From a bacterium (lineage in GTDB: Bacteria > Electryoneota > Electryoneia > Electryoneales > Electryoneaceae), in the NCBI GenBank assembly GCA_963669175.1, contig OY769902.1:1216001-1280000 (forward strand): a DNA stretch of 64,000 bases. Reading direction: 5' to 3'. Position 1 is the stretch's first letter, and every line of letters starts with the position of its first letter. The notes below the pieces were generated by a model. That model had not been told where the DNA came from and made no database searches. It saw only the letters and a list, made by a program, of their open reading frames with translations. Below are positions 22,061 to 59,260 of this stretch, one piece after another. A program made the translations under genes and the position numbers.

Positions 22061-22496
22061 TTCACAGGATGAACAGGATCAAGAAGGATAAGACAGGATA
22101 AAAGCATGTGTCAGGGAAGAAATAGCGATTCCCATTATTAGTCCGTCATATGGTCATGTGCCATATCAGTGAAATGCCAACTATATTGTTGGAATATAAG
22201 GATATGGAAAAAGGGGACTGCCTCCTTTCCCTGGGGTAAAGCCTTCCTGTTGTGAGCATGGACCGGGAAAGGTGGCTGTACCCTTTTTCTTGTGAGCAGG
22301 CAGGAATTACTCGGAAAAGGGGACAGTTTCCTTTTCCAAAAGCGAGGCGACGGAGTTCAGGTTATGGCGAGAGGAAAAGGATCCCGTCCCCTTTTCCCGG
22401 CAATCTCTATTATGACGGAATAAAATCGAAAACAGCTACATCAAAACAGTTTTGTTTTATCCTTGTAATCCTTTGTATCCTTGGCATCCTGTAAAT
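22061..22496. repeat. Inverted pair of 9-bp-period ACAGGAT repeats (family D) bracketing a family C element
   Basis: ACAGGATGAACAGGAT... at 22061-22103 and TATCCTTG...ATCCTGTA at 22455-22496. Confidence 0.75.
22121..22440 (+). repeat. REP-like family C copy
   Basis: Near reverse complement of 58940-59260; contains AAAAGGGGACAGTTTCC. Confidence 0.85.
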
Positions 22497-22534
22497 ACTT
22501 GCTGAGTGGTTGGGAATGCAGAAGTCGAGAATGC

Positions 22535-22562
22535 TGAAGAGAAAAGGCCAATCTGCCGATGA
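22535..22562 (+). promoter_or_regulatory. Sigma28 (FliA)-like promoter TGAAG-N15-GCCGATGA
   Basis: GCCGAT -10 box about 40 bp before the 22602 ATG. Confidence 0.55.
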
Positions 22563-22601
22563 GAGATACGAGGCAACAGGCGAAATCGAAACGGAATAGT
22601 C

Positions 22602-23411
22602 ATGCAGCCACTCAGCACCTTCAACATGGTGAACGTGATCGGGACCGCATCACCGGGCGGGCTCTCGTTGAGTACGGATTCTCAACGGAAGTCGCTCGAA
22701 GTGCGTATTGCTGCAGACGAGTATTTTGGATCATCGAAAAATGATGATACCTTGACTGCTGACATCGCCAGCATTTCCGACCAGGCCAAAGAAATGGCAG
22801 CTCGTGCAGAAAGCGCAGGTCTGTCTTCCGAAGAGTTGGAGGAATACGCTGAGATCGCCCAGCAGGTCGAGGATGATGAGGATATCCAGCAGGCACGGAA
22901 GAACCTGGCGACCATCAGGATCGGGGAGAAGGTCTCCCAGGATTTGATGGATAATACGGACAAAGAGCGGATACGTGATCTCGAAGAACGTGACCGCAAG
23001 GTTCGCCAGCGTGAAGAAGCACATGTCCGTGCGGCCGGGTTGCTGGCGTCAGGCGGGCCGAAATACCGTTACGAGATCGGCCCGGACGGCAAACGATACG
23101 CAGTTGAGGGGCATACGGATATCAAGGTGAAAGAGGGCAATACTCCGGAAGAACGTCTCAAGAACGCCAAGCAGGCCGAACGTGCCGCGCAGCAGGGTGG
23201 CGCTGTCACGCCGCAATCCGCAAAAGTACTGGCTGAAGCGCGTGGTGAAGCTCAGAAAGCTCAGCAGGAAATCGAGACGGAACAGAAAGGCGAAGAGCAG
23301 GAATCGTCAAGCTCGCAGCCATTAGTGGATCGTTTCGCGCAGAAAGTCGCCGATACCTACCGTCAACAGGATGACATTCCCTTCCACAAGCAGACCCTGA
23401 AACTGGATTGA
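22602..23411 (+). CDS. SprA-related family protein
   Basis: RDRKVRQREEAH..AAG...Y.YEIGPDGKRYAVEG signature. Confidence 0.8.
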   Translation: MQPLSTFNMVNVIGTASPGGLSLSTDSQRKSLEVRIAADEYFGSSKNDDTLTADIASISDQAKEMAARAESAGLSSEELEEYAEIAQQVEDDEDIQQARKNLATIRIGEKVSQDLMDNTDKERIRDLEERDRKVRQREEAHVRAAGLLASGGPKYRYEIGPDGKRYAVEGHTDIKVKEGNTPEERLKNAKQAERAAQQGGAVTPQSAKVLAEARGEAQKAQQEIETEQKGEEQESSSSQPLVDRFAQKVADTYRQQDDIPFHKQTLKLD

Positions 23412-23415
23412 TCTG

Positions 23416-24051
23416 TCAGCTCTTTCGTTTTAAAACCGCACGCACCGGCGCCCCACAAGCGCCCGCCACTTTCCACGGCAGGCAAATCAAATCGTACCAC
23501 CCCGGTGCTACTTCGCCAAGGTTCAGTCCTTCGACAACAAGAACGTCATTGGAAAGAAGTTTGTAATGCGTTTCGGTTCCTTCATTCTCGTAGAGTTGAA
23601 TGGAGAGATAATCGATTCCCACCAGCTTGATTCCTCGCTCGACAACCCAAGCTGCGCCATCAAGCGTGAGTGCGGCATAGGTGATATCAAAATCCTCGGA
23701 ATCGTTCTGCCATAAGCCTGAATTTGACGTCTTAAAAAGGAGCCGGGTAACTGACGCAGGGATATTAAGCGATTCTAACACTTTCTGATCAATTTTTGTG
23801 ACAGCGGCGGGTATGCCTGCAACAAATGTCTTTCCGATCAGACGGTCCGGTTGAACCTGGTCAATTGTTGTTCCGCCGGGAATGACATGGGCGGGTGCGT
23901 CCATGTGTGTGCCGACATGCAAAGAAGTTGAAATTACAGAGTTTCCAAAATCCTTAGTAGGAGACTCAACGGTTAGTTCCACTCTGTGATCGCCGGGCCA
24001 GACGGGCAAACGGTTGTCAACAGGAACACTGATATCAATCCAACTCGGCAT
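23416..24051 (-). CDS. Cyclase family / kynurenine formamidase-like metal hydrolase
   Basis: HVGTHMDAPAH, GIDYLS and VEGL...GAPVRA motifs. Confidence 0.9.
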   Translation of the reverse strand: MPSWIDISVPVDNRLPVWPGDHRVELTVESPTKDFGNSVISTSLHVGTHMDAPAHVIPGGTTIDQVQPDRLIGKTFVAGIPAAVTKIDQKVLESLNIPASVTRLLFKTSNSGLWQNDSEDFDITYAALTLDGAAWVVERGIKLVGIDYLSIQLYENEGTETHYKLLSNDVLVVEGLNLGEVAPGWYDLICLPWKVAGACGAPVRAVLKRKS

Positions 24052-24169
24052 AAACAAGCTCCTTTTCTCTCGAGTGTACCTGAATTCACCTGAAATCGCA
24101 AGCATGTGTAAACAGTCAGGTTTAGCCAGAAAACCAAGTATACTAACCAATAAGGCGATTAGCAAAATC

Positions 24170-24203
24170 TTGACACGTTATACCCTTGTGCTTATCTTCA
24201 CAA
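24170..24203 (+). promoter_or_regulatory. Sigma70-like promoter (TTGACA-17-TATCTT) overlapped by a Rex-like operator TTGTG-N8-CACAA (24186-24203)
   Basis: 18-bp imperfect palindrome covering the -10 box. Confidence 0.55.
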
Positions 24204-24318
24204 AGTTGTTAAACAGGGTTAACCGTTGGGTTACTGAAAGAATGGACAGATAATAGCAGCAAATGTGTTATCTGATCCAGACTTGGGTATGCAGCTTTCC
24301 ACTCTTCTGGAGGTTTCC

Positions 24319-24942
24319 ATGGCTACGAAACGCGCGGGGGAAATCATGATCCCCCTGGGGGAGTATCCTCATATTCCTCTCCGGTATACGATCAAACAAG
24401 CCGTTGAAGAGATGGAAGCCGCCATGATTGTAAAAAACGGCCGTCATTCTCTTCCCCGAGCCCTCCTGGTGTTTGACCGCGATTATGATCTGGTTGGAAC
24501 CGTACGCCGACGTGATCTGCTACGTACCCTGGAACCCCAATTCCTTCGAAGCCTTCCGGTGCATCATCAGCGGAAACTTTTTGATGTCGAAGCTGATGTG
24601 AACCTGATTGATATCAGTGCGGGACGTATTGCAGATGCAATGCGAGCCAATAGTGAATTGCCTGTGGCAAACTGCGTTCGCCCCATTACGGGAACCTGTA
24701 AGGTCGATGAACACCTTGCCAAGGTCATTTACAAGATGTTCACCTTTGACTTAAACCTGTTGCCTGTTCTGGACAACAAGAACAACGTGATGGGTGTTGT
24801 GCGAAGCGTCGACGTTTTTCATGAAATCGCCAGCATTATCCTTGACGAGATGCCTGAACCTCACTTGCCTCCTTTTTCGAACGAAAAAGGGACTGAGCTT
24901 ACACTCTCCGGTGGCGGTCAACAGGACATAGCCGACGAATAG
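24319..24942 (+). CDS. CBS-domain protein
   Basis: AGEIMIPL.EYP start, GTVRRRDLL and LPV..GVVRSVDVF CBS motifs; GGAGG RBS. Confidence 0.85.
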   Translation: MATKRAGEIMIPLGEYPHIPLRYTIKQAVEEMEAAMIVKNGRHSLPRALLVFDRDYDLVGTVRRRDLLRTLEPQFLRSLPVHHQRKLFDVEADVNLIDISAGRIADAMRANSELPVANCVRPITGTCKVDEHLAKVIYKMFTFDLNLLPVLDNKNNVMGVVRSVDVFHEIASIILDEMPEPHLPPFSNEKGTELTLSGGGQQDIADE

Positions 24943-24981
24943 TGTTCATAGCACAGATTGCCCGTAACTCCAGGACAGAAC

Positions 24982-26859
24982 ATGGCTAACAACCCGTCGC
25001 ACGATGTGCAGTACCATCCGAGGAAGTTGAAGTTTGACTACAGGCGTTTGTTCTTTATGCTGCTCGGTGTGGTTCTTTTTCTGGTCGTTTATTATTCCCC
25101 TGCCTGGCCGGACGCTGTGGACACCGAAGGCACTCATTATGCCCTGCCACATGAAGGCAAAGCGGCAATCGGGCTGTTTTTCTGGGCTGCAACCTGGTGG
25201 GTTTTTGAAGTTGTGCCCATTGGTGTAACGGCTATCCTGATTGGTGTTATCCAGGCGCTTTTCCTGATCCGGGAACCGAAAACAGCGTTTACCGATTTTA
25301 TGGACCCATCCGTATGGTTCATTTTCGGTTCTGTTGTAATCGGGATGTCCTTTTCTCGTACCGGGTTAACCAAACGGATGGCTTATAAGATGCTCATGCT
25401 GGTCGGTGAAAGAACCAGCATGATCTACCTTGGTTGTTTTGTCATGACAGCCGCGTTGACGCTGATTATGGCACATACGGCTGTTGCGGCGGCGGTTTTC
25501 CCGCTGCTGATGGCGATCTACCAGCTCTATGATCCCAGTGAACGTCCCACCAAATTCGGGAAAGGCCTGTTTATCGGCATGGCCTTTGTCGCAGGCGCCG
25601 GGTCGATTATCACCCTGCTTGGCGCGGCGCGTGGCGCGGTAGCGATCGGGTTTTATGAAGAAATCACCTCGACCATGAACCTGCAGGGACCGGCCAAGAT
25701 ACAGGTAGTGGATATCCTGGAGCCGGAGACATTTGTCACCGATATTAAAACCGGCAGCAATCCCATGGCCTTGAGGATTCAGACTGAGTTGTCGCCCTCT
25801 ACGATTGCCATGTTGAACAACTGGCCCGATGGTACAGAACCTTCAGATACCCTGTTGCAGGGATTGCTCTATGATGTGAACCTGCTTACGAAAAAGGTAA
25901 TCTGCTGTGATTCCCTGTTGTTGACCGGTGAAATGGATTTTGAGCCTGGACTTCTACGGTTGGCAACCATGGGCCATGACGGCCAGGATCTGGTGCGTGT
26001 CAATCGTTTGCTGGTCGAACAATCTTTCCCCGGCGTGATCAAGAGTACCTATACCAAGGTTACTGAAATAACTTTCTTTACCCTGTCGAAGTTCATGTTC
26101 CCGGTTGGTGCGCTCATGACAGTGCTGCTCTGGGTGTACATCATGTTCTATTTCAAACCGGAGCAGAAGACCATCCCGGGGCTTCGAAAACGTGTTGCTG
26201 TGTTGAATGAAAGCCTTGGCCCGATGAGCAGGCAGGAGATTCTGACGCTGATTATCGTAGCGTCTACAATTATCCTGATGAGTTCACGTCAGTTTGTGCC
26301 GGGATTGGACCAGCTTCATAAATCCGGGATTATCCTCTGTTCAACAATCCTGTTCTTCGTATTCAAAATCCTGACCATAGAAGATCTCGAGAATATTCCC
26401 TGGAATATTGTGCTGCTCTTCGGTGGCGCCATGTGTATCGGTTTCTGTTTGTGGCAGACCGAAGCCGCGCAGTGGATCGCTATCAACTGGCTGATCCTGT
26501 TCAAGAGTGCGAGCTGGTTTGTGTTTGTGCTTGGGGTGGCGTTCTTTGTGCTGGTGATGACCAACTTTATAATGAACGTGGCGGCGATTGCGATTGTGCT
26601 TCCGGTGGCGTTGTTCCTGGCGCCGCGTCTGGGCGTTTCTCCGGAAGTGATCATGTTCTCTTCCCTGGTTGCCGCAGGCATGCCGTTCCTGCTGCTGGTG
26701 GGCGCTGCGCCAAACGCGATTGCCTATGAATCCAAACAGTTCACGACCGGTGAGTTCTTTATCGCGGGTGTACCGGCCTCAATTCTGCTGATGGTTGTCA
26801 TCGGCCTGTTTGTCTGGCTGATCTGGCCAATGATGGGAATGCCGGTAACGGTTCCGTGA
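24982..26859 (+). CDS. SLC13/DASS sodium:anion (sulfate or dicarboxylate) symporter with an inserted soluble segment
   Basis: WWVFEVVPIG, IPWNIVLLFGG and AAPNAIAY motifs; many TM helices. Confidence 0.9.
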   Translation: MANNPSHDVQYHPRKLKFDYRRLFFMLLGVVLFLVVYYSPAWPDAVDTEGTHYALPHEGKAAIGLFFWAATWWVFEVVPIGVTAILIGVIQALFLIREPKTAFTDFMDPSVWFIFGSVVIGMSFSRTGLTKRMAYKMLMLVGERTSMIYLGCFVMTAALTLIMAHTAVAAAVFPLLMAIYQLYDPSERPTKFGKGLFIGMAFVAGAGSIITLLGAARGAVAIGFYEEITSTMNLQGPAKIQVVDILEPETFVTDIKTGSNPMALRIQTELSPSTIAMLNNWPDGTEPSDTLLQGLLYDVNLLTKKVICCDSLLLTGEMDFEPGLLRLATMGHDGQDLVRVNRLLVEQSFPGVIKSTYTKVTEITFFTLSKFMFPVGALMTVLLWVYIMFYFKPEQKTIPGLRKRVAVLNESLGPMSRQEILTLIIVASTIILMSSRQFVPGLDQLHKSGIILCSTILFFVFKILTIEDLENIPWNIVLLFGGAMCIGFCLWQTEAAQWIAINWLILFKSASWFVFVLGVAFFVLVMTNFIMNVAAIAIVLPVALFLAPRLGVSPEVIMFSSLVAAGMPFLLLVGAAPNAIAYESKQFTTGEFFIAGVPASILLMVVIGLFVWLIWPMMGMPVTVP

Positions 26860-27269
26860 TGCTTGACTTGAAGTGGAAGTCTTTCGACCCGGTGATTATC
26901 ACCGGGTTTACTTTTTTCGGCGAGAACGAAACGCCCGATGGTGGGACCGGGCGTTTCCTGCAGGGACAGACGCTCAAAAGATGAGCGGTACCTCGTTACC
27001 CCGTGTAGGGTAACAGGAAGATAGCGAGGCCTTTTTAACAAAACAAGACAAACAATGACGAAAAATCATTTTATGAACTTCTGGAATTCTCTCATGGCGG
27101 GAGTGTTGCGGTCAATTTATAAGGTTCCAGTCCGGATAAAAGGATTTCACCTGCGGAACTCAATGAAAGGAAAGGCAGACCTGGCACTTCGCTATTTGGA
27201 ATGTGAAGAATTGTTTTCGAAAAGTGGGATTACCCGTATTACGCTTATAAAATACCTCGAAAAGTGGAT

Positions 27270-27519
27270 AAGCAGGCGCATAATGGGACTGTTACCTTTT
27301 CATGCTCTCAAATGCTGGAATGTCAAACCAGTACAGATGAAAAGGTAACTGTACCAGATTTTTCGCCTGCAACAACAGGAGGCTTTCCTACTGGAAAATG
27401 TTGGGACAGCCACCTTTTCGCAATATTTTTTTTCGAAGACATAGTTATGTATATAAATAATAAATAGTTTGCAATGATCGGGCATTCGCACACGAAAAGA
27501 GTGGCAGTCCCCATTTCCC
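27270..27519 (+). repeat. REP-like family B copy, intact four-arm unit
   Basis: ATGGGACTGTTACCTTTT / AAAAGGTAACTGTACC / GGGACAGCCACCTTTT / AAAAGAGTGGCAGTCCCCAT; collinear with 51678-51928. Confidence 0.85.
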
Positions 27520-27564
27520 ACCTGCTATTCCCCGTTTCATCACAATAGCGAAGCACCAGGACTT

Positions 27565-28401: not shown

Positions 28402-28548
28402 GAGGGGGTTCCCAGTTTACGTTTTTTCCAGATGAAAACTCGTGCCAGCAAGCAAGTGACAATGTAGAATTACAAAATTAAATACACAAGATTCAATATT
28501 CCTGTGATAAAAGTCAGCCGGGGGAGTACTATAGTGAAAGGGAAAAAG

Positions 28549-29125
28549 CATATGGAAAAAGGGGACAGTTTCCTTTCCCTGGAATCAAGTCGTTCCGCAG
28601 TGTTTATCGTTCGGGAAAGGTGACTGTACCCTTTTTCTTGCGAGCAGGCAGGAAGTACACGGAAAAGGAGACAGTTTCCTTTTCCAGGAATGCTTCACGA
28701 ATATTTTGCATAAGCGCGAGGAAAAGGATCCCGTCCCCTTTTCCCGGCAAGCTCAGTTATGACATAAGGTTCCACACAAGAATTTGTGCAACCGGGCAAT
28801 GTTGTGGCAGGTCTTGACGCGACGGTCCGTTTTCGGCTTTCGCGATGTTTTCCCGAATACACGATGATACTGAAACCACCTCTCGTCCTGTTATTGTCGC
28901 GTTGTGACCTGCCACCGGTATCAGCACTCTCGGTGTCGTCAGGTCACAACGTGATGCCTGATGATGATCTATCATGCGAAATGGCATGTGTGAAGTCAGA
29001 TAGATGTCTGAAATTGCGGAGAAGAACAAGAAAAAGGCATCACGTCAAGACCTGACGAAACGTGCTCGTCGATAATATGCACAAATTCTTGTGAGCAGCC
29101 TGACATAATAAAATCGAGAACAGCT
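28549..29125 (+). repeat. REP-like family C copy with its 3' tail interrupted by MITE-A
   Basis: Collinear with 22199-22440; tail AATAAAATCGA.AACAGC resumes after 29108. Confidence 0.85.
28768..29100 (-). mobile_element. MITE-A copy 2 (333 bp), 8-bp TSD TGACATAA
   Basis: Reverse complement of copy 1; TSD at 28760-28767 and 29101-29108. Confidence 0.9.
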
Positions 29126-31804: not shown

Positions 31805-31944
31805 ATAATTGATGTTTTCCTTATTTCAGTTAGTGTAATGCTTTGTCCTGAAATTAGTATAAACCCTGTTTGACGAGCAAACAGGGGCAGTCAAACAGAG
31901 GTATTCATCCAGGGCAGTCAGTCAGAGGTAGTCAGTCAGTAAAA

Positions 31945-41945: not shown

Positions 41946-42332
41946 ATGGAAGCAAACGCAGCATTTGCAAATTACGGCGATATTATCCGTGTCATTGACA
42001 TGTTGTTTCAGGGCCGTCATGGTTGTACCGCCAGCGAACGTGAAGTCGGCGCCACCTTTACCGTGAGCACGGAACTGTTCCTCGACACACGTAAAGCCGC
42101 AGAAACTGACCAGCTTGAGTATACGATTGATGTTGCTGCTGTCCATGAAGTGGTGAAGGCAGTAGTGACCGGTACGACCTGCAACCTGGTTGAAACAGTT
42201 GCAGAGAATATTGCGAAAGACCTGCTGACTGCGTTCCCCATTAACGCAGTACGAGTACGGATGCATAAGGACCGCTCCCCAATGCCGGGACCAACCAACG
42301 GATACGAAGTTGAGTTGTTCCGGAAGGCCTGA
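41946..42332 (+). CDS. folB: Dihydroneopterin aldolase
   Basis: F.GRHGC...ER, TDQLEYTID and LVETVAE motifs; adjacent to folK. Confidence 0.88.
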   Translation: MEANAAFANYGDIIRVIDMLFQGRHGCTASEREVGATFTVSTELFLDTRKAAETDQLEYTIDVAAVHEVVKAVVTGTTCNLVETVAENIAKDLLTAFPINAVRVRMHKDRSPMPGPTNGYEVELFRKA

Positions 42333-42825
42333 GTCCGTACTGGTGTACCTTTGCCTCGGCGGCAACCTGGGAGATGTCCCAGGTGCGTTCGCCGAGGCAA
42401 ACTTACTCCTGGCCGGTTCCGAAGGGTGTGAATGCACCCGAAAAAGCCGGTTGTATCGTTCTGCGCCCTGGGGCGATCCGGATCAGCCGGATTTTTATAA
42501 CCAGGTGGTCGAACTTACATGGTGTGGCGCGTTTGAGGAACTGACCCGGTTGATGGATGAGATCGAGCAGAAGCTGGGACGTACCCGCGACAAGACACGC
42601 CGTTGGGGACCACGAACCCTGGATATCGACATCCTGCTCTATGGCGATACGGCTGTTGATCAAGATGGCTTCGTTGTGCCGCATCGGGAATTAAGAAACC
42701 GTCTCTTCGCATTGATCCCGCTGGCAGAACTGGCGCCGGATATCGTGCCGCCCGGATGGAACTTGTCGGTGAAGGATGCGATTCAGGCAACGACAGATAC
42801 GGGCTCGGTGAACGTGGTTGAGTGA
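42310..42825 (+). CDS. folK: HPPK (start codon uncertain)
   Basis: YLCLGGNLG, QPDFYN, RWGPRTLDIDIL and PH..L..R.F motifs. Confidence 0.93.
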   Translation: MSCSGRPESVLVYLCLGGNLGDVPGAFAEANLLLAGSEGCECTRKSRLYRSAPWGDPDQPDFYNQVVELTWCGAFEELTRLMDEIEQKLGRTRDKTRRWGPRTLDIDILLYGDTAVDQDGFVVPHRELRNRLFALIPLAELAPDIVPPGWNLSVKDAIQATTDTGSVNVVE

Positions 42826-42951
42826 GCGCGTGATAATGAGTGGCGTGGGCGAAAAATGGGACTTTCATGATAAGTAGAGTCAAGGGGAAGACGGAGTTTT
42901 CCCGAGTCCTTTGATTCATCTCTGAACCAGGACGATGCCTAACCTCTTCCT

Positions 42952-43166
42952 CAACGCGTTTTTCCTGACCTTTGCTCGCTCTCGCGTGGGCCGCCAACAG
43001 ACCTTACGGCCAGACATTCATGGTCTGTCTCGGGGCCATATGGCCCGTCACAGAAGATGAAGTTAGGGATCACCCGACCAGCCTCTAAACAGTTTCAAGG
43101 ATGCCCGAAGCATAGTCCCCTGTTTCGTGAGGCCTGGCGGGCAGGTCCGGTTTACAATACGCGTTG
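42952..43166 (-). ncRNA. Predicted bridge/seek RNA of the IS1111-type element (ends approximate)
   Basis: Closing stem CAACGCGU/ACGCGUUG; target-binding loop with guides AGGGGAC (43121-43115) and GAAACUGU (43096-43089); donor-like CAUGAAUGU (43022-43014). Confidence 0.8.
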
Positions 43167-43178
43167 TGGCATAGAATG

Positions 43179-44225
43179 TTAGTTTACAAGTTCTGTTGTC
43201 GTGTCGGCTTGAACAAACGGCGTTCCCCGTCGATCAACCGCCATCAGATACGCTACCAGCTTGCGTGCTACCGCCAAGGTTGCCCGGTTGGGATTGCTGC
43301 GTGCCAGTTCACGGTCATGCACAATCTGCAGCTCTGGATGCCACTGTGGCGCCAGCTTCGCCGCTTCGATCAGTTTCGTCTGCAAATGTTTGTTTCGTTT
43401 CTTGGACAACGGTCCCCGTTTCGTTTTTCCCGCTGATTCCTGCTGCGCACTACACAAACCGCAGTAACTGATTGCCTTGGAAATACTGGCAAACCGTTCC
43501 ACTTCACCCACTTCCAACGCCCATGTCAGCGCGGTCATCACACCAATGCCACGGATCGTCATCAACAACTTCACCCGATCTGCCAACAGCGAATGCGTAG
43601 CCAGCGCCTTAACCAGTTGAAGTTGCAGCGCCTCAAACAGCTCAAGGCCGGCACGATTCATTCGCAACATCTCAACCACAGTGGTCGGAATCTCATCCAG
43701 CGTATCAAGTTCAATGAGCAATTCATGGAAGTAGCGTTTGCCATGTAGACGCCTTTTCGAATACTCAGCGCCCACTTCCATCAGTAATCCGGCCGTCTTG
43801 TTCTTCAGGCTCACGGCATGCCGGACGATTTTGTTGCGAAATCGCAGCACACGGCGTAGCTCACGGATATCTGATGGTGCCATGTAACATTCCGGCAACA
43901 GGTCGATACGGAGCAGATCTGCGATACGTTTGGCGTCATCCTTGTCATTCTTTTTCTTCGCCGCCGTAATCGCCTTCAGCATCGCCGGGTGTGCCACCTT
44001 CAGTGCCGATGCATGCGGCTTCAGAAAATCATAAATCCAGCCTGTAAACAACGTCGCTTCCATCGCCGCCGCCCAGGGAGTCGGTAACTTCGCAACCCAG
44101 TTTGAAAGAGCAGGACGGGTGGATGCAACCATGCCCTGGTCAACTATCTTACCTGCCGACGTTTGAATACAATACGCAATCTTCTTCTTGTGTACGTCCA
44201 GACCGATGTAGTATACTGCCTGCAT
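43179..44225 (-). CDS. IS110-family DEDD recombinase/transposase
   Basis: YIGLDVHK, AMEAT, KNDKDDA (DEDD RuvC-like) and GIG...SYCGL....ESAG (catalytic Ser region); GAGGAGG RBS. Confidence 0.95.
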   Translation of the reverse strand: MQAVYYIGLDVHKKKIAYCIQTSAGKIVDQGMVASTRPALSNWVAKLPTPWAAAMEATLFTGWIYDFLKPHASALKVAHPAMLKAITAAKKKNDKDDAKRIADLLRIDLLPECYMAPSDIRELRRVLRFRNKIVRHAVSLKNKTAGLLMEVGAEYSKRRLHGKRYFHELLIELDTLDEIPTTVVEMLRMNRAGLELFEALQLQLVKALATHSLLADRVKLLMTIRGIGVMTALTWALEVGEVERFASISKAISYCGLCSAQQESAGKTKRGPLSKKRNKHLQTKLIEAAKLAPQWHPELQIVHDRELARSNPNRATLAVARKLVAYLMAVDRRGTPFVQADTTTELVN

Positions 44226-44908
44226 GCCAACCTCCTCGTGTAAGTACTACGGGTAACCTCGTGTTACGCCTTTAACACAAGTTAGCCCGACATGTGTGCT
44301 GCGTCGAGGTTGGCTGCTTCTACTTATGCATTATAACAGTTTCCTTTTCGTGGTTCAGAATGCAGGACATTATATCCAATGATTTTGAAAAGGAAACTGT
44401 ACCGAATTTTTCGCCTGTAATCGTTGCATGTTCCTGCGCGGAAAAATGCTGGGACAGTTACCTTTTTCGCAACAAGTTTCTCAAGCTTATCAAGTCAATA
44501 GCACTGTCATACAGTATCAAGACTGTCAACCAACCTGCCAGCGAAAACGAGTAACAGTCCCCATTTTTCAATTATAGCTTCCTGTTCCCGGTGACAAAGT
44601 TTGCGTGGCCCGATGCACACGTGAGACTGGTTGAGTTGTTGGTGTTGCTTGGATACTGTGATACTGCAATGACCTGTAACACAAGTACGAGTGGATCGGG
44701 ACTGAGCAGAAAACACCGGCAAAAGGGTACAGTCACCTTTTCGATTCATTGAATCACGGGATAGCTAACTAAAGCGCGACGAAAAGGAAACAGTCCCCTT
44801 TTGCTGCCAGATTCCTGTTCCCGGTGACATGCTGAAAAGGGAGACCCGGTGATGCGAAGCTCTCCTTCATGCCGTATTTTACGCTGAACGACAACGATGG
44901 GTTGAAGC

Positions 44909-45556
44909 TTGAGCGATCATAACTACATCGTCATCGAGGGGGTAATTGGTGCGGGCAAAACCAGTTTGGCGACCCTCATGGCAGAGCGGCTGGATGCCAA
45001 GCTGGTTCTGGAACAGCATGAAGAGAATCCTTTCCTCGTCGATTTCTATCGTGACCCGGAACATTTCGCGTTTCAGACGGAACTGTTCTTCCTGCTGAGC
45101 CGGTATCGTCAGCAGACAGAAGAGTTCACGCAGACCGATCTGTTCCAGCAGTACACGATTTCCGATTACCATTTCGCGAAAAACCGTATCTTCGCCAACA
45201 TTACCCTGGACGACCGTGAGCTGTCCCTGTACGACCATGTGGCGACGTTGCTGGAACGTGATGTCCGTACCCCGGACCTGGTGGTTTACCTGCAGTCCAG
45301 CCCGGAACGCCTGATGCGGAATATCCGGATACGGAATCGCACTTACGAACGTGAGATCAGTGGCGAGTATATCAAATCCCTCGTGGAAGCCTATAACTAC
45401 TTCTTCTTCCATTACGAAGCCTCTTCACTGCTGGTGGTCAATACCAACGAAGTGGATTTTGTCCGCAATCCGCAGCATCTGGAAGATTTGCATCAACGTA
45501 TCCTGAACACCCCGGATGGGACATCGTTCTACAATCCTTCCGGGAGGGGAAAATGA
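44909..45556 (+). CDS. Deoxynucleoside kinase
   Basis: IVIEGVIGAGKTSLA P-loop, NPFL..FY, PDLVVYL. Confidence 0.92.
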   Translation: MSDHNYIVIEGVIGAGKTSLATLMAERLDAKLVLEQHEENPFLVDFYRDPEHFAFQTELFFLLSRYRQQTEEFTQTDLFQQYTISDYHFAKNRIFANITLDDRELSLYDHVATLLERDVRTPDLVVYLQSSPERLMRNIRIRNRTYEREISGEYIKSLVEAYNYFFFHYEASSLLVVNTNEVDFVRNPQHLEDLHQRILNTPDGTSFYNPSGRGK

Positions 45557-45750
45557 GCCGCATTTTTCTTGCCCTGGCGGTATTCCTGGGCGTTTCCTGG
45601 TTGCTGAAAAAAACACGGATGTGGATGGCCAGCCAAGAGACCACACCAGAACCGGAACAGGAAGTGAAGGGCAGCCCACGCAATGTGAATCGTGAGATCG
45701 ACCCGGATGATATTATCGATGCCGAATACCACGACGTGGAAGAGAAGTAG
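45553..45750 (+). CDS. Small membrane-anchored hypothetical protein
   Basis: N-terminal TM, C-terminal DIIDAEY.DV motif, 4-bp overlap with the kinase gene. Confidence 0.7.
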   Translation: MSRIFLALAVFLGVSWLLKKTRMWMASQETTPEPEQEVKGSPRNVNREIDPDDIIDAEYHDVEEK

Positions 45751-46011
45751 TTGACTGTACAGGATGAAAAGGACACGAAGGATAGCGAGGATAAACGGAT
45801 TACAGATTCTATTGTAATGATTCAATGAACAGCATGAAGCAATGGCAAACACAAAGAAGCATAAAGCCGCATGGCCCGATTTGCCGGTTGTCAGTGATGT
45901 ATACATGAGCTTGTTGCGATGTTCGCTGGACGTGGATTTGTGATGCAGACAATGAGCAAGTCGGGAAAAGAGCAAGAGTAACATAGAAGTCTAAACGAAC
46001 GTAAAAGTATC

Positions 46012-52109: not shown

Positions 52110-54545
52110 ATGCTGCGCAATATTCTTGTTCAATTCTGGCGTAATGTCAAGAAAAACAAGCTATATACTACATTCAATATCGCGGGTCTTGCGATTGGGA
52201 TGGCAGCGTTTATCCTGATCGGCCTCTATGTTTATTACGAGAATCAATACGATGCCCACCATCCGGACGCGGACCAGATTGTGCAGCTCACCTGTTACGC
52301 CAACCTCGGTGGCGACCAGGTTTTCAATTTCGATACCGGATCTGCGCCCATGGGGCCAGCGCTGGTGCGCGAGATAGACGCCCTCAAGGAATTCCTGCGG
52401 ATCCGCTCCTTTACCGAAAACTTCGCACTCCGTGCCGGGGAACGGGTTATCTCCATCAGCTCCGTAAATGATGCCGATTCCAGCCTGTTCGATTTTTTCC
52501 AGTATGAATTTTTACAGGGTGACCCGAAAAGGGCACTCACCGCCCCCAATTCAGTGGTTCTTTCCGAAGAGACCGCACACAGTCTTTTCGATGATACCGA
52601 TCCCATGGGACAGGAAGTGGTATTCCGAGATTGGACATCGCTAACAGTCACCGGAGTGTTCCGTACCCCGGACAAACCGACTCACCTGCCCGATTTCCCC
52701 ATGATTATGTCCTGGTCTACGAGAAAACGTGATGACGACGGTGGCTGGCTGAACAATATTTCCTACAATACCTATTTCAAGGTGCCGACGGGCACTGATC
52801 TGGCCTCCCTGCAACCCTTCCTGGATCAATCCCTGGACAAGCATGAGGGCGATGCGCTACGGATGTTGGGCGGGGAGAACATCTCGGATTTTACGGACAT
52901 CTTCCGCCTGTACCTGCGTCCTCTGCGTAGCATCCACCTTGCGGCCAACGAGCTGCAGGGTATGCGTGGCAAATACGGCCACCACCGTGACAACCTGTTC
53001 CAGTTGGGCGGACTGGGTTTGTTCATTCTACTGATCGCCTGTTTGAATTATATCAACCTCTCCACCGCCAAGAGCGCGCTTCGCAGCCGTATGGTGGGCG
53101 TAAGCAAAACACTCGGCGCGACACGTTCAATTCTCGTGCGCCAATTCCTCGCCGAATCCGTAATCCTGTCCCTGGTCGCTTTCATTATTGCGCTATTGCT
53201 GGTTTACCTGGCGCTGCCTTATTTCACCAACCTGTTACAAAAGAATCTCGCAATCTTTTTCCTGTCGACGCCGTGGCAGATCCTTGCATTGGTTGCCGGG
53301 GCGATTATCATCGGCCTGCTTGCCGGGATTTACCCTGCGTTTGTGTTGTCCAGCTATCGTCCGGTTACGGTCCTGTCCGGAGCGGTGATACGTGGGACAA
53401 AAGGTACACGCCTGCGTTCGCTGTTTGTCATTCTCCAGTTCGCCATCTCGATTTTCCTGGTGCTGAATACCTTGATTGTGGGGAAGCAGACAGAATTCAT
53501 GCGAACCAAGGATCTTGGCTATGATACGCACCAGATGCTGGTGATCCGGCTGGAGAACGGGGATCTGATGGAACAGCATCGTGTGCTGAAAACCGAAATC
53601 ATGCGCTTGCCGGGTGTGCTGGCGGCGACCACGGCCGATTTTACCCCGGACGACATTCGTAACAACAGCGTCTACCATATCCCTGGCGGGGTGGAAGAGG
53701 ATCAGAAGCTGTTCCATATCTGGCCGGTGGATCATGACGCCATTACCACGTTCGGCCTGACGCTTGTTGACGGGCGAGAATTCAACCCCGACATGGCAAC
53801 CGACTCGACCATGTCCATCATTATCAACGAAGCCGCAGCGAAACTGTTGCCCTGGGAAAATCCTGTCGGTGAACACATCGAGGAAATCGAGACGCTTGAC
53901 CCGGTGACTTACACCCCGATGGACATCATCGGCGTGGTGAAAGATTTCCATTTTCATTCGCTGCATAATGAAATCGCGCCCATGTTCATGCAGATTTATT
54001 ACGGTGAGCCGCCCTACCTGTTTTTCAAGCTTGACGGCGCTCGAATCCCGGAGACGATGGCCGAGATCGAACGGTTGTGGAAGGATTTCGCCCCACGTAT
54101 GCCGTTGCAGTACAAATTCATGGACGAAGGCTTCAACAAGATGTACCATACCGAGCTGCAACTGGGCGTGTTGATCCGTTACGCGACGGGTTTGGCGATC
54201 CTGGTCGCGGCAATCGGCCTGTTCGCCCTGGCGGCGTTCGCGGCGCAACAACGCACCCGTGAAATCGGCATCCGTAAAGTACTGGGCGCGACCTCGGAAG
54301 GCATCACACTGCTGCTGTTGCGTGATTTCCTGACACTGGTCGGGATCGCGTTTGTGCTGGCTGTCCCGCTGGGAGCGTGGGTGATGAACCACTGGCTGCA
54401 AAGCTACGCCTACCGGATCACACTCGGCCCCGGCCCGTTCCTTTTGGCGGGTGTGCTGGCCTTCGGAGTTGCAGTGATCACGGTCGGCGGCCTCGCCTGG
54501 AAAGTCGCCAATGCCAACCCGGTCAAGGCTATCCGGCATCAGTAG
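52110..54545 (+). CDS. ABC transporter permease (MacB/FtsX-like)
   Basis: Paralogue of the 29405 gene; NYINLSTA, REIGIRKVLGA and ANPVKAIR motifs. Confidence 0.92.
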   Translation: MLRNILVQFWRNVKKNKLYTTFNIAGLAIGMAAFILIGLYVYYENQYDAHHPDADQIVQLTCYANLGGDQVFNFDTGSAPMGPALVREIDALKEFLRIRSFTENFALRAGERVISISSVNDADSSLFDFFQYEFLQGDPKRALTAPNSVVLSEETAHSLFDDTDPMGQEVVFRDWTSLTVTGVFRTPDKPTHLPDFPMIMSWSTRKRDDDGGWLNNISYNTYFKVPTGTDLASLQPFLDQSLDKHEGDALRMLGGENISDFTDIFRLYLRPLRSIHLAANELQGMRGKYGHHRDNLFQLGGLGLFILLIACLNYINLSTAKSALRSRMVGVSKTLGATRSILVRQFLAESVILSLVAFIIALLLVYLALPYFTNLLQKNLAIFFLSTPWQILALVAGAIIIGLLAGIYPAFVLSSYRPVTVLSGAVIRGTKGTRLRSLFVILQFAISIFLVLNTLIVGKQTEFMRTKDLGYDTHQMLVIRLENGDLMEQHRVLKTEIMRLPGVLAATTADFTPDDIRNNSVYHIPGGVEEDQKLFHIWPVDHDAITTFGLTLVDGREFNPDMATDSTMSIIINEAAAKLLPWENPVGEHIEEIETLDPVTYTPMDIIGVVKDFHFHSLHNEIAPMFMQIYYGEPPYLFFKLDGARIPETMAEIERLWKDFAPRMPLQYKFMDEGFNKMYHTELQLGVLIRYATGLAILVAAIGLFALAAFAAQQRTREIGIRKVLGATSEGITLLLLRDFLTLVGIAFVLAVPLGAWVMNHWLQSYAYRITLGPGPFLLAGVLAFGVAVITVGGLAWKVANANPVKAIRHQ

Positions 54546-54715
54546 GGGGACTCACAGGGGTTGACGCACGGTACATGACTCACAGGATGATAGGATAGAA
54601 GGATGGCAAGGATGAACTGAATGTATTTACAGAATTTACAGGATGCGTAAGGATTGACAGGATTGTATATGCTTGAATTTACAGGATGTGAAGGATATAA
54701 AGGATGAAAAGGATT
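54545..54715 (+). repeat. Family D ACAGGAT arrays (others at 45758-45810, 46315-46382, 51192-51265, 55518-55555, 63305-63377, 63715-63803)
   Basis: 9-bp-period (A/C)AGGAT units. Confidence 0.75.
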
Positions 54716-54760
54716 ATTTCTTGTGAAAAGACTGGAAAATTTCAAGCAAATTCTTTGGTT

Positions 54761-55162
54761 CTAGAGGAGTAATTGTATCTCATTGGAATGTCTGCCCAGT
54801 TTCTTATCAAAAGTGACCAGCGTATCGCATCCACGGGACAGGCAGCGAACGAGGATCAAGTAGTCGGAGAAGTCGGCGGTGCCCTGAGTGTAGAGGCTGA
54901 TGGCGCTATGGATCAGTTCGCTATCCTCAACGACAATCCCTTCCGATTGAGACAAGCGATGCAGAACGGAACCGATTTCCGGGCGTTTGAAGTGATAGGC
55001 GGATTCCAGCACCCAGACCAGCTCGCAGAAGACGATATCATCCACGTAGAGAGCGGTGCCGTCCTTGACCGCGCTCTCGATGACGTCCGCCGCCTGGGCT
55101 TCCTGTTTGGGATCATCCTGCACGATATAACGGACCAGCACATTGGTGTCCAGTCCGATCAT
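54761..55162 (-). CDS. vapC: VapC-family PIN-domain toxin
   Basis: LDTNVLVR, E-helix, DFSD and TFD PIN motifs. Confidence 0.9.
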   Translation of the reverse strand: MIGLDTNVLVRYIVQDDPKQEAQAADVIESAVKDGTALYVDDIVFCELVWVLESAYHFKRPEIGSVLHRLSQSEGIVVEDSELIHSAISLYTQGTADFSDYLILVRCLSRGCDTLVTFDKKLGRHSNEIQLLL

Positions 55163-55392
55163 TGCCCGCTGCCACGTTTGCGAATGGTTTCCAGGATCTC
55201 GTCCATGCTGACATGACGGTCGGCCTTCAACGCACCACGCAACTGTTCAATCGAGGAACGCCGTTGCAGGATGACGTCATCGGGCGATACCCGCAGGAAC
55301 CGTACCTTGTCGCCCGGATTCAGTTGCAAGTGATCACGCACCGCCTTCGGGATGGTGATCTGCCCCTTTTTACTTAACATCGCCCAGTCCAT
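55159..55392 (-). CDS. AbrB/MazE/SpoVT-family antitoxin
   Basis: KGQITIPK.VR..L.L.PGD motif; 4-bp overlap with the toxin. Confidence 0.9.
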   Translation of the reverse strand: MDWAMLSKKGQITIPKAVRDHLQLNPGDKVRFLRVSPDDVILQRRSSIEQLRGALKADRHVSMDEILETIRKRGSGQ

Positions 55393-56107
55393 AGGATCTC
55401 CTTTACTTTATTGGAAATGTAAAGAATAACTATGGAAAGTGCAATATAGTTCGATGAAATGTGAAACCCGACAGCGAGCAGCACGCCACGACGCACAAGT
55501 CGGGCCAAACTGTTTTACTCACAGGATGATAGGATAGAAGGATTGCAAGAATGAAAGTCATTAATTGCAGAGTATGGACGAGAGGGTAGAGGGAACACTT
55601 GGCTAAAATCAGCGACACTCTCATCCCAGCGCAGGCTGGGATCCAGTCAAATTGCGATGCCAAACAGGGGATCACACTCTCGCTGAGCGTGGGATATCAG
55701 CATTTAGCAGGGTATTTAACTCTTTTCAATGTCGATACTTGCCTGGATCCCAGCCTGCGCTGGGATGAGAGTGTAGTTGGTTCTTGTATTATCCGGAAAA
55801 TGATGTAGGAAAGGAACAAACCATGCAGAGGTCGTCTTGCCTGGCAGAGCGGCCGACGGAGTAGATCCCCGCCGCCGCGGGGATGACAGTGGGGGTTAGT
55901 TCATCAAATGATTCTGCATGTGCGAAAAGGTCGTTTGGCCCGACTTGTGCGCCGTGGCGTACTGCTTGCTGTCGGGTAACCTCTCAAGCCACGATAACTG
56001 CGAAAATGGGACAGACCACGAAGGGTCAGTCCCGATTTTCGCTCCTCTTCACTTCTCTCGACAAAAAACCCGGCCATCAGGCCGGGTCATAAAATCCAAT
56101 CTCAAAC

Positions 56108-56415
56108 TGGGCAATGTTGTGGCAGGTCTTGACGCGACACTCCGTTTTCGGCTTTCGCTATGTTTTCCTGAATTCACGATGATACTGAAACCGCCTCTTG
56201 CCGTGTTTTTGTCGCGTTGTGACCTGCCACCGGTATCAGCATTCTCGCCGTCGTCAGGTTACAACGTGATGCCTGATGACGATCTATCATGCGAAATAGC
56301 AGGCGTGAAGCCAGACAGATGTTTGTAATTACAGCGAGAAACAGGAAAAAGGCATCACGTCAAGACCTGACGAAACATGCTCGTCGATAGTATGCACAAA
56401 TTCTTGTTAGCAGCC
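56108..56415 (-). mobile_element. MITE-A copy 3 (one end truncated)
   Basis: Similar to 28795-29100; left terminus replaced by a duplicated terminator. Confidence 0.85.
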
Positions 56416-56474
56416 AAAATCAAAAACCCGGCCATCTGGCCGGGTCATTGCTGTCCAATCTTAAAACACTGCCA

Positions 56475-56984
56475 TCACTTCTTCTTCAGGGCTTCCAGCG
56501 CACGTTTCAAATCTTCCGGGTCGGCGTTGTCCAGGCTGTTTTTCAGCTCTTGGCGGAGTTTGTCGGCATCATTCGGTTCCTGCCCCGGTTCGACGATCCC
56601 CAGCAGACGGCAGACAGCCGAGACATACTTGGCGGGGGTGACCGGTTTCTCGAGGTAGACGCCTGAGCCGGACATGGTCAGCTCGTCAAAATCGACCTTG
56701 CCCAGGTCATCACGAGCGTGGCCGGTGACGATCAGGATAGGGATTTTGGACGTGGCCGGGTCTTTCTTCATGGCACGGTGGAACTGGGCGCCCGAGCCTT
56801 TCGGCATCACCAGGTCCAGCGACACCAGGTCCGGGTTGATTTCCTTGACCTTTTCCAAGGCCTGCACGCCATCCTCAGCGGTGGACACTTCGAACCCGGC
56901 ATCTTCCAGCGCCATGCTCAGATAGGCACGGATGTCGGCTTCATCGTCAACTACCAGGATATGCTTTCCTGTTTTGGTATCCAT
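56475..56984 (-). CDS. Response regulator (receiver plus short C-terminal extension)
   Basis: VVDDE, PDLVSLDLVMP, TGH and EKP motifs. Confidence 0.92.
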   Translation of the reverse strand: MDTKTGKHILVVDDEADIRAYLSMALEDAGFEVSTAEDGVQALEKVKEINPDLVSLDLVMPKGSGAQFHRAMKKDPATSKIPILIVTGHARDDLGKVDFDELTMSGSGVYLEKPVTPAKYVSAVCRLLGIVEPGQEPNDADKLRQELKNSLDNADPEDLKRALEALKKK

Positions 56985-57003
56985 ACGTACCCCCGTAGGT
57001 ATG

Positions 57004-58461
57004 TTAACTCTCTATGTTTTGTTCCTGATACAGTGTTTGCAGACGTTTGCGCGGGAAACGGATGGTGAAGGTTGAGCCGACATCCGTTTGGGTATTCATC
57101 TCGATCCGTCCGCCATGCTCCTGCACAATTTTCCTCGTGGTCAGCAGGCCCAGCCCGGTGCCCTTGCCGCCCTTGGTGGTGAAGAAGGTGGTGAAAATTT
57201 TGTTCTTGACTTCCTGGTCCATCCCGGCGCCGTTATCCTCGACCTGGAACACCAGCTCGTCATCCCGTTCCAGGGTACGCATGACTACCCGTTTCGGGCC
57301 TTCCTCACGCATCATTACCGCATCGATCGCGTTGGACATCAGGTTGGTCAAACAGGCTTCTATCCCTTCCGGGTCCAGTGGCGCAGGCTGGAGGGTTTCG
57401 TCCAGTTCATGCACCAGCTCCACATCCTGACGAGCCGCGGTTTCGGCGTATAGTTCGACAATATCACGGACTACCTGGTTCGGGTCGAGCAGTTTCATCT
57501 CGGGCAGGCGTCCCTTGGAAAAACTCAGGAAGCCACGCACCAGGTCGGTGGTCTTGGTGAAGTTGCGTTGCAGGACATCCCAGCCCTGGTTGATACGGTC
57601 CTTGTTATCCCGTTTAATCCCGGAATCGACCATGTACATCCCGCCTTCCAGCCCCATCAGCAGGTTCTTGATGGTGTGGGCCAGACCGGCTACGGTTTGA
57701 CCGACCGCGGCGAGACGTTCGGCGTCGATATTCTGCTTCTCCAGTTCCTTGACATGGGTAACGTCGGTCATGATCTCGATAACATGCTCAACATTGCCAT
57801 CGCCACGTGACAGCGGCGAGGTGTGGACTACGTAATAAGTCGTCTGCCCGTCCTTGGTCACGCCGACCTGCTCGCCCATGTGCTCCTGGCCGTCCTCGAA
57901 AGTACGTGCGGCCGGGCAACTGGTGCAGGGTTTGTCACGACGCTTGTTCACCTGGTAGCAGTGACGTCCGCGTCCTTCGCCAAACGTGTTACGGAATTTC
58001 TCGTTGGTGCGAGTGATCTTGAATTCACGGTCAACCACCGAGATGTAACAGGGGACACGGTCGAAGAGGACGTCGTACTGGCGTTGCCATTGACGGATTT
58101 CCGTGATATCACGGCTCAGCTCCAGCAGAAAATGGGCCTTGCCGTCATCGTCAAGGATGGGAATGGTATGGACGACGTAATGGCAGGTGCGTCCATTGCG
58201 GTCAATCCCGGTTTCATCGGATACAATGGTCTCGCCATGGGCGAAGACTTTATCCGCCTTGCAGGCGTCGCAATGCTGGTCCTTGCCCTTGTATACTTCA
58301 TGGCATTTCTTGCCCTGCCAGTCGCCGAAATAGTCACGGAAGTTTTCGTTGGCGCGGATAATATTGTAATCACGGTCAATCACCGCGAGGTTGAAAGGCA
58401 ACTGTTCAAACAGGCTGCGGTAGAGAAGCGCGTTGATCTGCGCATCGGTCGGCTGGTTCAT
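57004..58461 (-). CDS. Cytoplasmic PAS-PAS sensor histidine kinase
   Basis: Two PAS domains with C/CxxC motifs; AHTIKN H-box, NAIDA, DNGAG, FFTTK and GTGLGL boxes. Confidence 0.92.
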   Translation of the reverse strand: MNQPTDAQINALLYRSLFEQLPFNLAVIDRDYNIIRANENFRDYFGDWQGKKCHEVYKGKDQHCDACKADKVFAHGETIVSDETGIDRNGRTCHYVVHTIPILDDDGKAHFLLELSRDITEIRQWQRQYDVLFDRVPCYISVVDREFKITRTNEKFRNTFGEGRGRHCYQVNKRRDKPCTSCPAARTFEDGQEHMGEQVGVTKDGQTTYYVVHTSPLSRGDGNVEHVIEIMTDVTHVKELEKQNIDAERLAAVGQTVAGLAHTIKNLLMGLEGGMYMVDSGIKRDNKDRINQGWDVLQRNFTKTTDLVRGFLSFSKGRLPEMKLLDPNQVVRDIVELYAETAARQDVELVHELDETLQPAPLDPEGIEACLTNLMSNAIDAVMMREEGPKRVVMRTLERDDELVFQVEDNGAGMDQEVKNKIFTTFFTTKGGKGTGLGLLTTRKIVQEHGGRIEMNTQTDVGSTFTIRFPRKRLQTLYQEQNIES

Positions 58462-58939
58462 GGCCGGTCCTCGTAATTCGCCGGTGTGGAAATCCTGGAT
58501 CAGGTTTTTCATGAAAGTATCCAGCCTGTTTGGTTTACACAAGATGCATCAGCCGTTAACGCTACAGTAAAACACGCTCCTTCACTATACTTTTCTACCG
58601 AGTTGTATAGATATTGACAACAGATTTGTATGGTTGTCGTTCCTTTACGACTGAAGGCTGATTCGCTATCTCATTCAGGATCCTTTATGTGCCACCCCTT
58701 CGGGGTTTATAGGGGGTGGTGTCAAGGTTCCCGGGGCTTACGCCCCGCGCTATTCATGTTTCGCTCCTTCGGAGCATGTGGATTCATCTTAGTCGATTCA
58801 TCGGAATCTGTGTATCTACCGTTATCATTATTACCAATAATTCTCGGAAGCGGATAAGCCTCTTCAAAGTTATTGGGACTTGCCTGGATCCCCGCCTGCG
58901 CGAGGATGAAAACCGAAGGATTGATTCTCTTATTTTTAT

Positions 58940-59260
58940 TGCTGTTCTCGATTTTATTCCGACATAATAAAGATTGCCGGGAAAAGGGGACGGGATCCTT
59001 TTCCTCGCGCGCATATGAAACACTCTCGCCGAACTTGTGGAAAAGGAAACTGTCCCCTTTTCCGTGTACGTCCTGCCTGCTCTCAAGAAAAAGGGTACAG
59101 CCACCTTTCCCGGTCCATGCTCACAGCGGGAAGGCTTTGCCCCAAGGAAAGGAAACTGTCCCCTTTTTCCATATCCTTATCCTTTATTCCAACCATATGG
59201 TTGACCTTTCACTGATCTGGCACATGACCACATGACGGAATAATAATGGGAATCGCTATA
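58940..59260 (-). repeat. REP-like family C copy
   Basis: Reverse complement of 22121-22440; two GAAACTGTCCCCT sites. Confidence 0.85.

Follow-up and report, generated by a model that had tools for sequence, protein, structure and literature searches.

The stretch analysed here, called the window, comprises 64,000 nucleotides of a bacterial genome of the Electryoneaceae (bases 1216001-1280000 of a single 5.45-Mb contig). It contains an insertion sequence (IS) of the IS110 family at 42863-44335 and, at several other places, hairpin repeats carrying a 13-mer, GAAACTGTCCCCT, that resembles the site in which the element sits. This raises the question of whether the element finds these repeats by means of an RNA of its own and, if so, whether the repeats are landing sites in use, traces of a past activity or substrates for rearrangement. 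The answer favoured here with high confidence is that this is an IS1111-group element with a bridge (seek) RNA, the guides of which direct the insertion of the element's circular form into the loops of abundant intergenic hairpins.

The element and its ends

The element at 42863-44335 is an IS110-family member of the IS1111 group. Its recombinase carries both Pfam domains of the family (PF01548 DEDD_Tnp_IS110, E 2.6e-20; PF02371 Transposase_20, E 7.5e-17; both above the curated cut-offs), and a short core is present at both junctions without a long target duplication. The features that define the IS1111 group are present as well, namely 9-bp subterminal inverted repeats and a longer non-coding region 3' of the gene, with 316 nt downstream of the gene and 110 nt upstream of it. 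A distant similarity (E about 1e-6) links the recombinase to the IS621 and ISCro4 transposases, whose structures are solved, and the aligned part includes the ES(A/G) stretch, which we take to hold the catalytic serine. The subterminal repeats, the long downstream non-coding region and the layout of the ends fit the IS1111 group as it is described in PMC11187229 and PMC11208160. The gene, the repeats and the junctions are placed as follows.

42863..44335, minus strand: body of the IS1111-group element, 1473 bp, with GT at each junction (copy comparison; ends conserved in 80 relatives)
43179..44225, minus strand: transposase/recombinase gene, 348 aa (PF01548 and PF02371)
44319..44327, minus strand: left subterminal inverted repeat ATAAGTAGA, 9 bp (conserved in relatives)
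42870..42878, minus strand: right subterminal inverted repeat TCTACTTAT, the complement of ATAAGTAGA, 9 bp (conserved in relatives)
44336..44337, minus strand: GT of the left junction, with T before it at 44338 (copy comparison)
42861..42862, minus strand: GT of the right junction, with A before it at 42863 (copy comparison)
42878..42883, minus strand: -35 box TTGACT at the right end (read from the sequence)
44330..44335, minus strand: -10 box TATAAT, with which the left end begins (read from the sequence)

Joining of the two ends through the core would bring the last two features together and yield a consensus promoter, TTGACT-N17-TATAAT, on the circular form. Junction promoters of this kind have been demonstrated for ISEc11 and ISEc21, as reported in PMC11187229.

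A predicted guide RNA in the downstream region

The initial annotation had described the 13-mer as encoded by a guide within the element, and this description is borne out. The two halves lie at 43089-43096 and 43115-43121, on the two sides of an internal loop in a conserved RNA structure. Read on the sense strand, the right end of the element has an outer stem around this loop, with the guides on its two sides and a short hairpin between them. The features of the predicted RNA are the following.

43115..43121, minus strand: 5' guide segment AGGGGAC, complementary to the top strand GTCCCCT, that is, to the core and the right target (sequence, covariation)
43089..43096, minus strand: 3' guide segment GAAACUGU, identical to the left target and core and thus pairing with the bottom strand (sequence, covariation)
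43073..43141, minus strand: target-loop structure of the RNA (RNAalifold on 48 sequences; single-sequence fold)
43006..43072, minus strand: putative donor-binding loop, with a 5' segment CUAAC at 43062-43066 and a 3' segment CAUGAAUGU at 43014-43022 (relatives)

The structure was examined in relatives of the element. A scan of species-representative genomes yielded 80 loci with a protein identity of 59-67%, mostly from metagenome-assembled Desulfobacterota, and the 75 loci with at least 300 nt downstream of the gene were kept. For the consensus fold, the window sequence was combined with 47 loci chosen from 65 distinct sequences, leaving out L017, L077 (misaligned-looking) and some near-duplicates. 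RNAalifold predicted 18 pairs for these 48 sequences, with compensatory changes in 13 of them, the same outer and inner stems and a conserved two-loop structure. Folding the whole right end as a single sequence gave a z-score of only -2.1 and paired the donor-guide segments with each other; the alignment fold was preferred to it. In 42 of 48 relatives, the final 5 nt of the right end recur as the 3' segment of the donor loop; among them are variants with a covarying TAGAT. A scan of 42000-46000 against Rfam 15, with E-values up to 1, returned three chance-level matches to unrelated families and no bridge-RNA family.

Guides and flanks were found to change together among the relatives. All loci with a junction found by anchors were used, and duplicates were collapsed, which reduced 62 loci to 51 pairs on the left and 43 loci to 29 pairs on the right. 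The left flank is identical to the 3' guide segment at 4.73 of 6 positions, compared to 2.85 after shuffling (51 non-redundant pairs), and the right flank is identical to the complement of the 5' guide segment at 4.21 of 6 positions, compared to 3.44 (29 pairs). The observed values were reached in 0 of 2000 shuffles on either side. The right end therefore holds what characterises a bridge or seekRNA: two segments of opposite strand specificity that overlap at the core and covary with the target. As in this element, the top-strand match is located 5' of the bottom-strand match in the IS1111-type seekRNAs reported in PMC11187229.

A close variant of the element, about 95% identical and found on a contig from a seawater metagenome, differs in both guide segments. 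The changes 43093 T>C and 43095 T>A turn the 3' segment into GUAGCUGU, and a 1-nt deletion in the C run at 43117-43120 leaves a 5' segment ending in ...CAGGGAC. The right flank of the variant, GT-CCCTGGATTTTCC, fits the changed guide; the variant's contigs cover the right flank, not the left. In the genome studied here, the same flank sequence is found as another loop class of the same hairpin superfamily, with 2 copies of GTAGCTGTCCCTG and 23 of GTAGCTGTCCCAG. Judging from these sequences, the variant is a case of natural retargeting in which guide and right flank have changed together.

Target sites in the window and genome

A search of the window confirmed the four exact copies of GAAACTGTCCCCT and the one-mismatch copy at 28666 that the initial annotation had listed, and it added one further one-mismatch copy, at 44787, directly beside the element.

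22318..22330, minus strand: exact empty target site, loop of the hairpin GGAAAAGG...CCTTTTCC in composite copy 1
28560..28572, minus strand: exact empty target site, terminal hairpin of composite copy 2
28666..28678, minus strand: one-mismatch site GAAACTGTCTCCT in composite copy 2
44787..44799, plus strand: one-mismatch site GAAACAGTCCCCT in a B-type hairpin adjoining the IS
59046..59058, plus strand: exact empty target site in composite copy 3
59152..59164, plus strand: exact empty target site, terminal hairpin of composite copy 3

These six matches with at most one mismatch compare with 0.03 expected, and a count of six was reached in 0 of 100 shuffles. The four exact copies and the site at 28666 fall within three copies of one four-hairpin composite element, at about 22200-22440, 28550-28790 and 58940-59200. 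The four exact copies therefore represent three loci, and they are not four independent events.

In the whole genome, the 13-mer occurs in 82 exact copies (48 on the plus and 34 on the minus strand) at 66 loci, whereas 0.16 copies are expected from base composition. Another 116 copies have one mismatch, and only 90 of the 8.94 million distinct 13-mers of the genome are more frequent. As many as 80 of the 82 exact sites are located outside open reading frames (ORFs) of at least 150 aa, although such ORFs cover 85% of the genome. GAAACT is also the commonest 6-mer preceding GTCCC (91 occurrences), followed by GATCCC (89).

The proposal that the RNA is tuned to abundant intergenic repeats of its host is supported by these counts, by the intergenic position of the sites and by the covariation of guides and flanks, but it seems to hold for one half of the guide only. 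The right half (GGGGAC) is common to many relatives in other phyla, and therefore only the left half looks host-adapted when the sequences are compared. The related idea that the repeats act as safe harbours agrees with insertion into intergenic hairpin loops, but it has long been established for the family and is not new.

Copies of the element and their insertion sites

A second full copy is located at genome positions 344228-345729 and is 99.5% identical to the copy in the window, with differences at 7 of 1502 positions. The homology of the two copies ends at the IS ends, apart from shared target bases. Both have an open frame of 355 codons from stop to stop and identical guide segments. 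Four of the differences are clustered within 28 bp of the transposase gene (window 43251-43278), a cluster that could be a small conversion tract. Two truncated 5' fragments of 324 bp (genome 1628745-1629068) and 237 bp (2995185-2995421) were also found, as well as a 162-bp fragment, elsewhere in the genome, from a relative that is 91% identical.

In the sequencing contigs from two runs of one sample, the contigs are broken at the IS ends, and the depth is about 59 in the IS compared to 22-38 in its flanks, which is consistent with two full copies. Contigs from another sample span the left junction without differences, and the occupancy in that sample is therefore the same. In a genome of the same genus, the two flanks are found on separate contigs with 71-79% identity, and the sole relative of the IS is a truncated 5' fragment at ...ACCGTCT-GT, so that no pre-insertion allele could be read there.

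In all four copies that retain their left end, this end adjoins GAAAC-T-GT inside the loop of a B- or C-type hairpin, so that none of these insertions lies outside the two repeat families or away from the GT. Both full copies occupy hairpins with CGAAAAGG arms, which is family B of the initial annotation, and both truncated copies occupy the second hairpin of the composite, which is family C. The truncated copy at 2995185-2995421 has its deletion joint in a 4-bp GTCC that is common to an internal site of the IS and the right junction, and its right target half is restored. The joint of the copy at 1628745-1629068 has no GT, and the joined sequence is also present at window position 28796, beside a composite.

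The base before the core

As read from its junctions, the occupied site in the window is GAAACT-GT...GT-CCCAT between hairpin arms CGAAAAGG/TTTTTCG. It matches the 13-mer at 12 of 13 positions and has B-type arms, as had been stated initially. A comparison with empty sites suggests that this was not the state before insertion. The genome contains 30 B-type hairpins (C, then GAAAAGGAAAC, one base and GT), and all 28 empty ones have A at the variable base, whereas the two occupied ones have T. At the right junction, the GT is preceded by A in both full copies, whereas the donor-loop segment carries U at this position and T is found there in 41 of 44 relatives. At the left junction, 64 of 65 relatives have T before the GT. 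One relative genome contains three copies of one IS; over their last 40 nt, these differ solely at the base before GT, which is T, A and A, respectively.

The simplest reading of these junction bases is that the crossover appears to take place one base to the left of the GT, so that the base before GT is swapped between the two junctions. The T at 44338 is then probably derived from the IS, and the A at 42863 is probably the target's own base. Since the T before GT seems to be IS-derived, the window site was probably GAAACAGTCCCAT before insertion, which is an 11/13 and not a 12/13 match. If the bases are swapped in this way, the original site of the second full copy was probably GAAACAGTCCCCT (12/13), and the circle would carry T and match the guide perfectly. 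The usable sites would also include the 37 GAAACA-GTCCC sites of the genome. The class exemplified by GAAACAGTCCCCT at 44787-44799 is probably the site class used by both full copies. Alternatively, two rare T variants of the B-type hairpins might have been selected, combined with an independent change from T to A in the right end of the IS.

For IS621, Durrant et al. (PMC11208160) report that mismatches are tolerated at the left-donor base immediately preceding the core. One relative of the window element, L059, combines GT at the left junction with GC at the right one; GC-CTCATA is matched exactly by its 5' guide segment and its 3' segment ends in GU, which looks like a core heterology between donor and target. 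The apparent exchange of the base before GT bears on the position of the cut in this subfamily and on the core heterology that is tolerated. It also matters for the prediction of targets from junctions and for the use of IS1111-type recombinases as tools.

Proposed mechanism and alternative explanations

In the favoured explanation, a DEDD/serine recombinase would be guided by a bridge (seek) RNA from the 316-nt non-coding region downstream of its gene; we infer that this RNA is produced and bound by the protein, and the element itself is presumably still active. The segment AGGGGAC would pair with the top strand GT-CCCCT and GAAACUGU with the bottom strand of GAAACT-GT, and both together would specify GAAACT-GT-CCCCT, a sequence that forms the loop in one class of the very abundant intergenic hairpins with an AAAGG/CCTTT stem. 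As the guide would specify a loop of this kind, the circle of the element could enter it while leaving genes unharmed. A second loop of the RNA would read the joined element ends, which should also create the TTGACT-N17-TATAAT promoter. With a crossover one base to the left of the GT, sites with A at this position would be usable as well, at the price of a base swapped between the junctions.

Several observations weigh against this explanation. There are only two full copies despite 82 perfect sites. Both are found in the rarer B-type hairpins, and two truncated remnants are all that occupies the perfect C-type sites. The shuffles used to assess the covariation ignore the relatedness among the loci. 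The identity of the right target per position is 0.97, 0.86, 0.79, 0.55, 0.55 and 0.48 and thus good for the first three bases only, and therefore the effective target may be shorter than 13. In the donor loop, the agreement of the 5' segment with the left end is weak (41 of 66) and shows no clear covariation. Finally, the contigs of four sequencing runs show no excision, empty-site or circle joint. However, contigs cannot reveal rare forms, and the lack of such joints is therefore no evidence of inactivity.

Among the alternatives, the one that survives best accepts the match between guide and target as real but regards the element as a decaying relic that is now immobile, so that the 82 sites would not be functional landing pads today. 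It is unlikely but deserves consideration, as it fits the presence of only two full copies, which differ at 7 of 1502 positions, beside three truncated fragments, the contigs without excision or circle joints, and the rare occupation of perfect sites. Nevertheless, the 355-codon frames are open in both full copies, the guide segments are identical, and the element has kept intact ends, subterminal repeats and a predicted junction promoter, while rare circles cannot be excluded from contigs.

That the recombinase and its RNA might also cause rearrangements was suggested in the initial annotation; deletions or inversions of this origin between target-like hairpins are improbable. Bridge recombinases can excise or invert DNA between programmed sites, as described in PMC11208160, and the GTCC joint of the truncated copy at 2995185-2995421, with its restored right target half, could be seen as a product of such an event. 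However, the internal site involved agrees with the left target at no more than 2 of 6 positions, and a GT is missing from the joint of the other truncated copy (1628745-1629068). For these two reasons, a guide-directed origin of the truncated copies was rejected. Moreover, the RNA pairs donor with target and not target with target. The only joints in the contigs of the four runs are two short skips in the hairpin array that adjoins the IS (about 44469-44543), found in both runs of one sample, and none is located at an IS end or a 13-mer site. Rearrangement by the recombinase is thus unsupported.

The weakest alternative regards the guide as a by-product, with a captured copy of a host hairpin in the right end of the IS and a protein that recognises hairpin structure without any RNA guide; the targets are indeed palindromic hairpins with the insertion in the loop, and ISPpu9 is described as preferring clustered repetitive extragenic palindromic (REP) structures (PMC12288879), but the alternative is very improbable, since the halves of the 13-mer inside the IS are swapped in order, have opposite senses and are separated by a hairpin, no AAAGG...CCTTT stem surrounds the guide segments there, the scaffold is conserved in relatives of 59-67% identity while their guide positions differ and track their own flanks, and the variant of about 95% identity has changed both guide segments and the right flank together.

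Relation to known systems

The host hairpins resemble REP repeats and bacterial interspersed mosaic elements (BIMEs) as abundant intergenic palindromic repeats in composite arrays that are landing sites for IS110-family elements. They differ from REP/BIME repeats in their purine-rich stem (AAAGG) and in their loops, which fall into about ten classes, and no link to Y1 transposases of the REP-associated tyrosine transposase (RAYT) type was seen. REP/BIME repeats as IS targets are reportedly treated by Tobes and Pareja (2006), and Choi et al. (2003) is said to be a source on IS621 of E. coli.

The IS1111 elements ISEc11, ISKpn4, ISPa11 and ISPst6, as described by Siddiquee et al. 2024 (PMC11187229), also have a DEDD transposase, subterminal inverted repeats and a long downstream non-coding region. 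The seekRNA elements of that report share the order of the two strand matches and their overlap at the insertion point, as well as the promoter formed by end joining, which is predicted for the window element, and natural reprogramming between close relatives. In contrast to them, the window element targets the loop of a different host repeat, and its crossover seems to include the tolerant base before GT. Its protein is only 59-67% identical to its nearest relatives in a set limited to species-representative genomes.

IS621 of E. coli (Durrant et al. 2024, PMC11208160; structures 8WT6 and others) is described as another RNA-guided IS110-family recombinase that uses one position in REP sequences. 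It has a two-loop bridge RNA for target and donor, a layout that the window element putatively shares, and a tolerant position just before the core in the left donor, as seems to be the case here too. Unlike the window element, it belongs to the IS110 group, with the RNA upstream of the gene, a CT core and the reverse order of strand matches in that account. The similarity of its protein to that of the window is distant (E 3.6e-6). ISPpu9 and ISPpu10 of Pseudomonas putida are also members of the IS110 family, and PMC12288879 reports all copies at one REP position, often in REP clusters, together with truncated or modular derivatives. They differ from the window element in an AG boundary dinucleotide, the additional small RNAs Asr9 and Ssr9 and the phylum of the host, and according to that account they lack a junction promoter.

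According to these reports (PMC11208160, PMC11187229, PMC12288879), IS110-family elements such as IS621 and ISPpu9/10 are already known to target REP sequences, and bridge or seek RNAs are already known to act as guides. The main inference of the initial annotation is therefore sound but not novel, and what is new here is a different host and a different repeat. Modest new points are a crossover region that probably spans three bases, the first of them tolerant, a close variant with a changed target and a second element on the same composite. No new kind of biology is opened by the finding. It adds a clear-cut case from nature of bridge/seek-RNA targeting beyond the model hosts, in which the guide, its cognate repeat, 82 unused perfect sites, the imperfect sites that were used and a retargeted close variant can all be recognised from sequence alone. 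For genome annotation, it accounts for the clustering of IS copies and fragments in the repeat arrays of this genome.

A second element on the same repeats

A second, unrelated IS110-family element is present at genome positions 789358-790727 and in 11 further copies. It is 1370 bp long and has a stop-to-stop frame of 378 codons, subterminal repeats CTATGT..AAAC and AG or GG at its junctions. Seven of its 12 copies are located at the same point, the outer edge of the family C composite (AAAATCG-AG-AACAGC). Its empty 15-mer site occurs in 23 exact copies genome-wide. The empty sites in the window are located at 29110-29124 (plus strand), 58941-58955 (minus strand) and, with one mismatch, 22422-22436 (plus strand).

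A broader interpretation, offered tentatively and with more doubt than confidence, is that the hairpin superfamily, uniform in its stem but divided into about ten loop classes, forms a shared, partitioned landing field for RNA-guided IS1111-type elements. Variants would switch loop class through a few guide bases, as between GAAACT-GT-CCCCT for the window element and GTAGCT-GT-CCCTG for the metagenome variant, and the second element would use the composite edge. Crossover would involve a three-base region with a tolerant first base, so that junctions mis-report the original site. If this interpretation were true, guide evolution would track loop abundance, and insertion pressure might shape the diversification of loops.

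The host hairpin repeats

The genome contains 447 strict AAAGG-N7-11-CCTTT hairpins in about ten loop classes. Within the superfamily with an AAAGG stem and a 9-nt loop, the loop classes comprise 11 to 88 strict copies each. The four-hairpin composite is found genome-wide in about 120 partial copies and in 33-37 copies that are near-full. These hairpins have the general properties of REP-type repeats, as they are short, intergenic, imperfect palindromes present in many copies and in composite clusters. An assignment as REPs in the strict sense was considered and rejected, as the 10 matches to Y1 transposases (PF01797) lack flanking hairpins: hairpins are found within 800 bp of 3 of the 10 genes, compared to 23% of random windows, so that there is no association. 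Therefore, the term REP-like, used in the initial annotation, applies to these hairpins by analogy only.

The IS lies near the edge of an intergenic hairpin array (44336-44812 and 42845-42862), at one of its ends; the array comprises at least six hairpins from several loop classes and has a gene on either side. A two-hairpin unit of this array (44714-44812) is found in about 30 copies across the genome. Other frequent 13-mers are unrelated to the hairpins; some of them, such as TGTCATCCCCGGC, reach up to 119 copies, and the genome therefore contains additional repeat families. Directly downstream of the third composite, at window positions 59268-59420, a unit of about 54 bp (…aaccgccttcgcaagctacggcgttttcaagccggcggggccaaaga…) is present three times in tandem.

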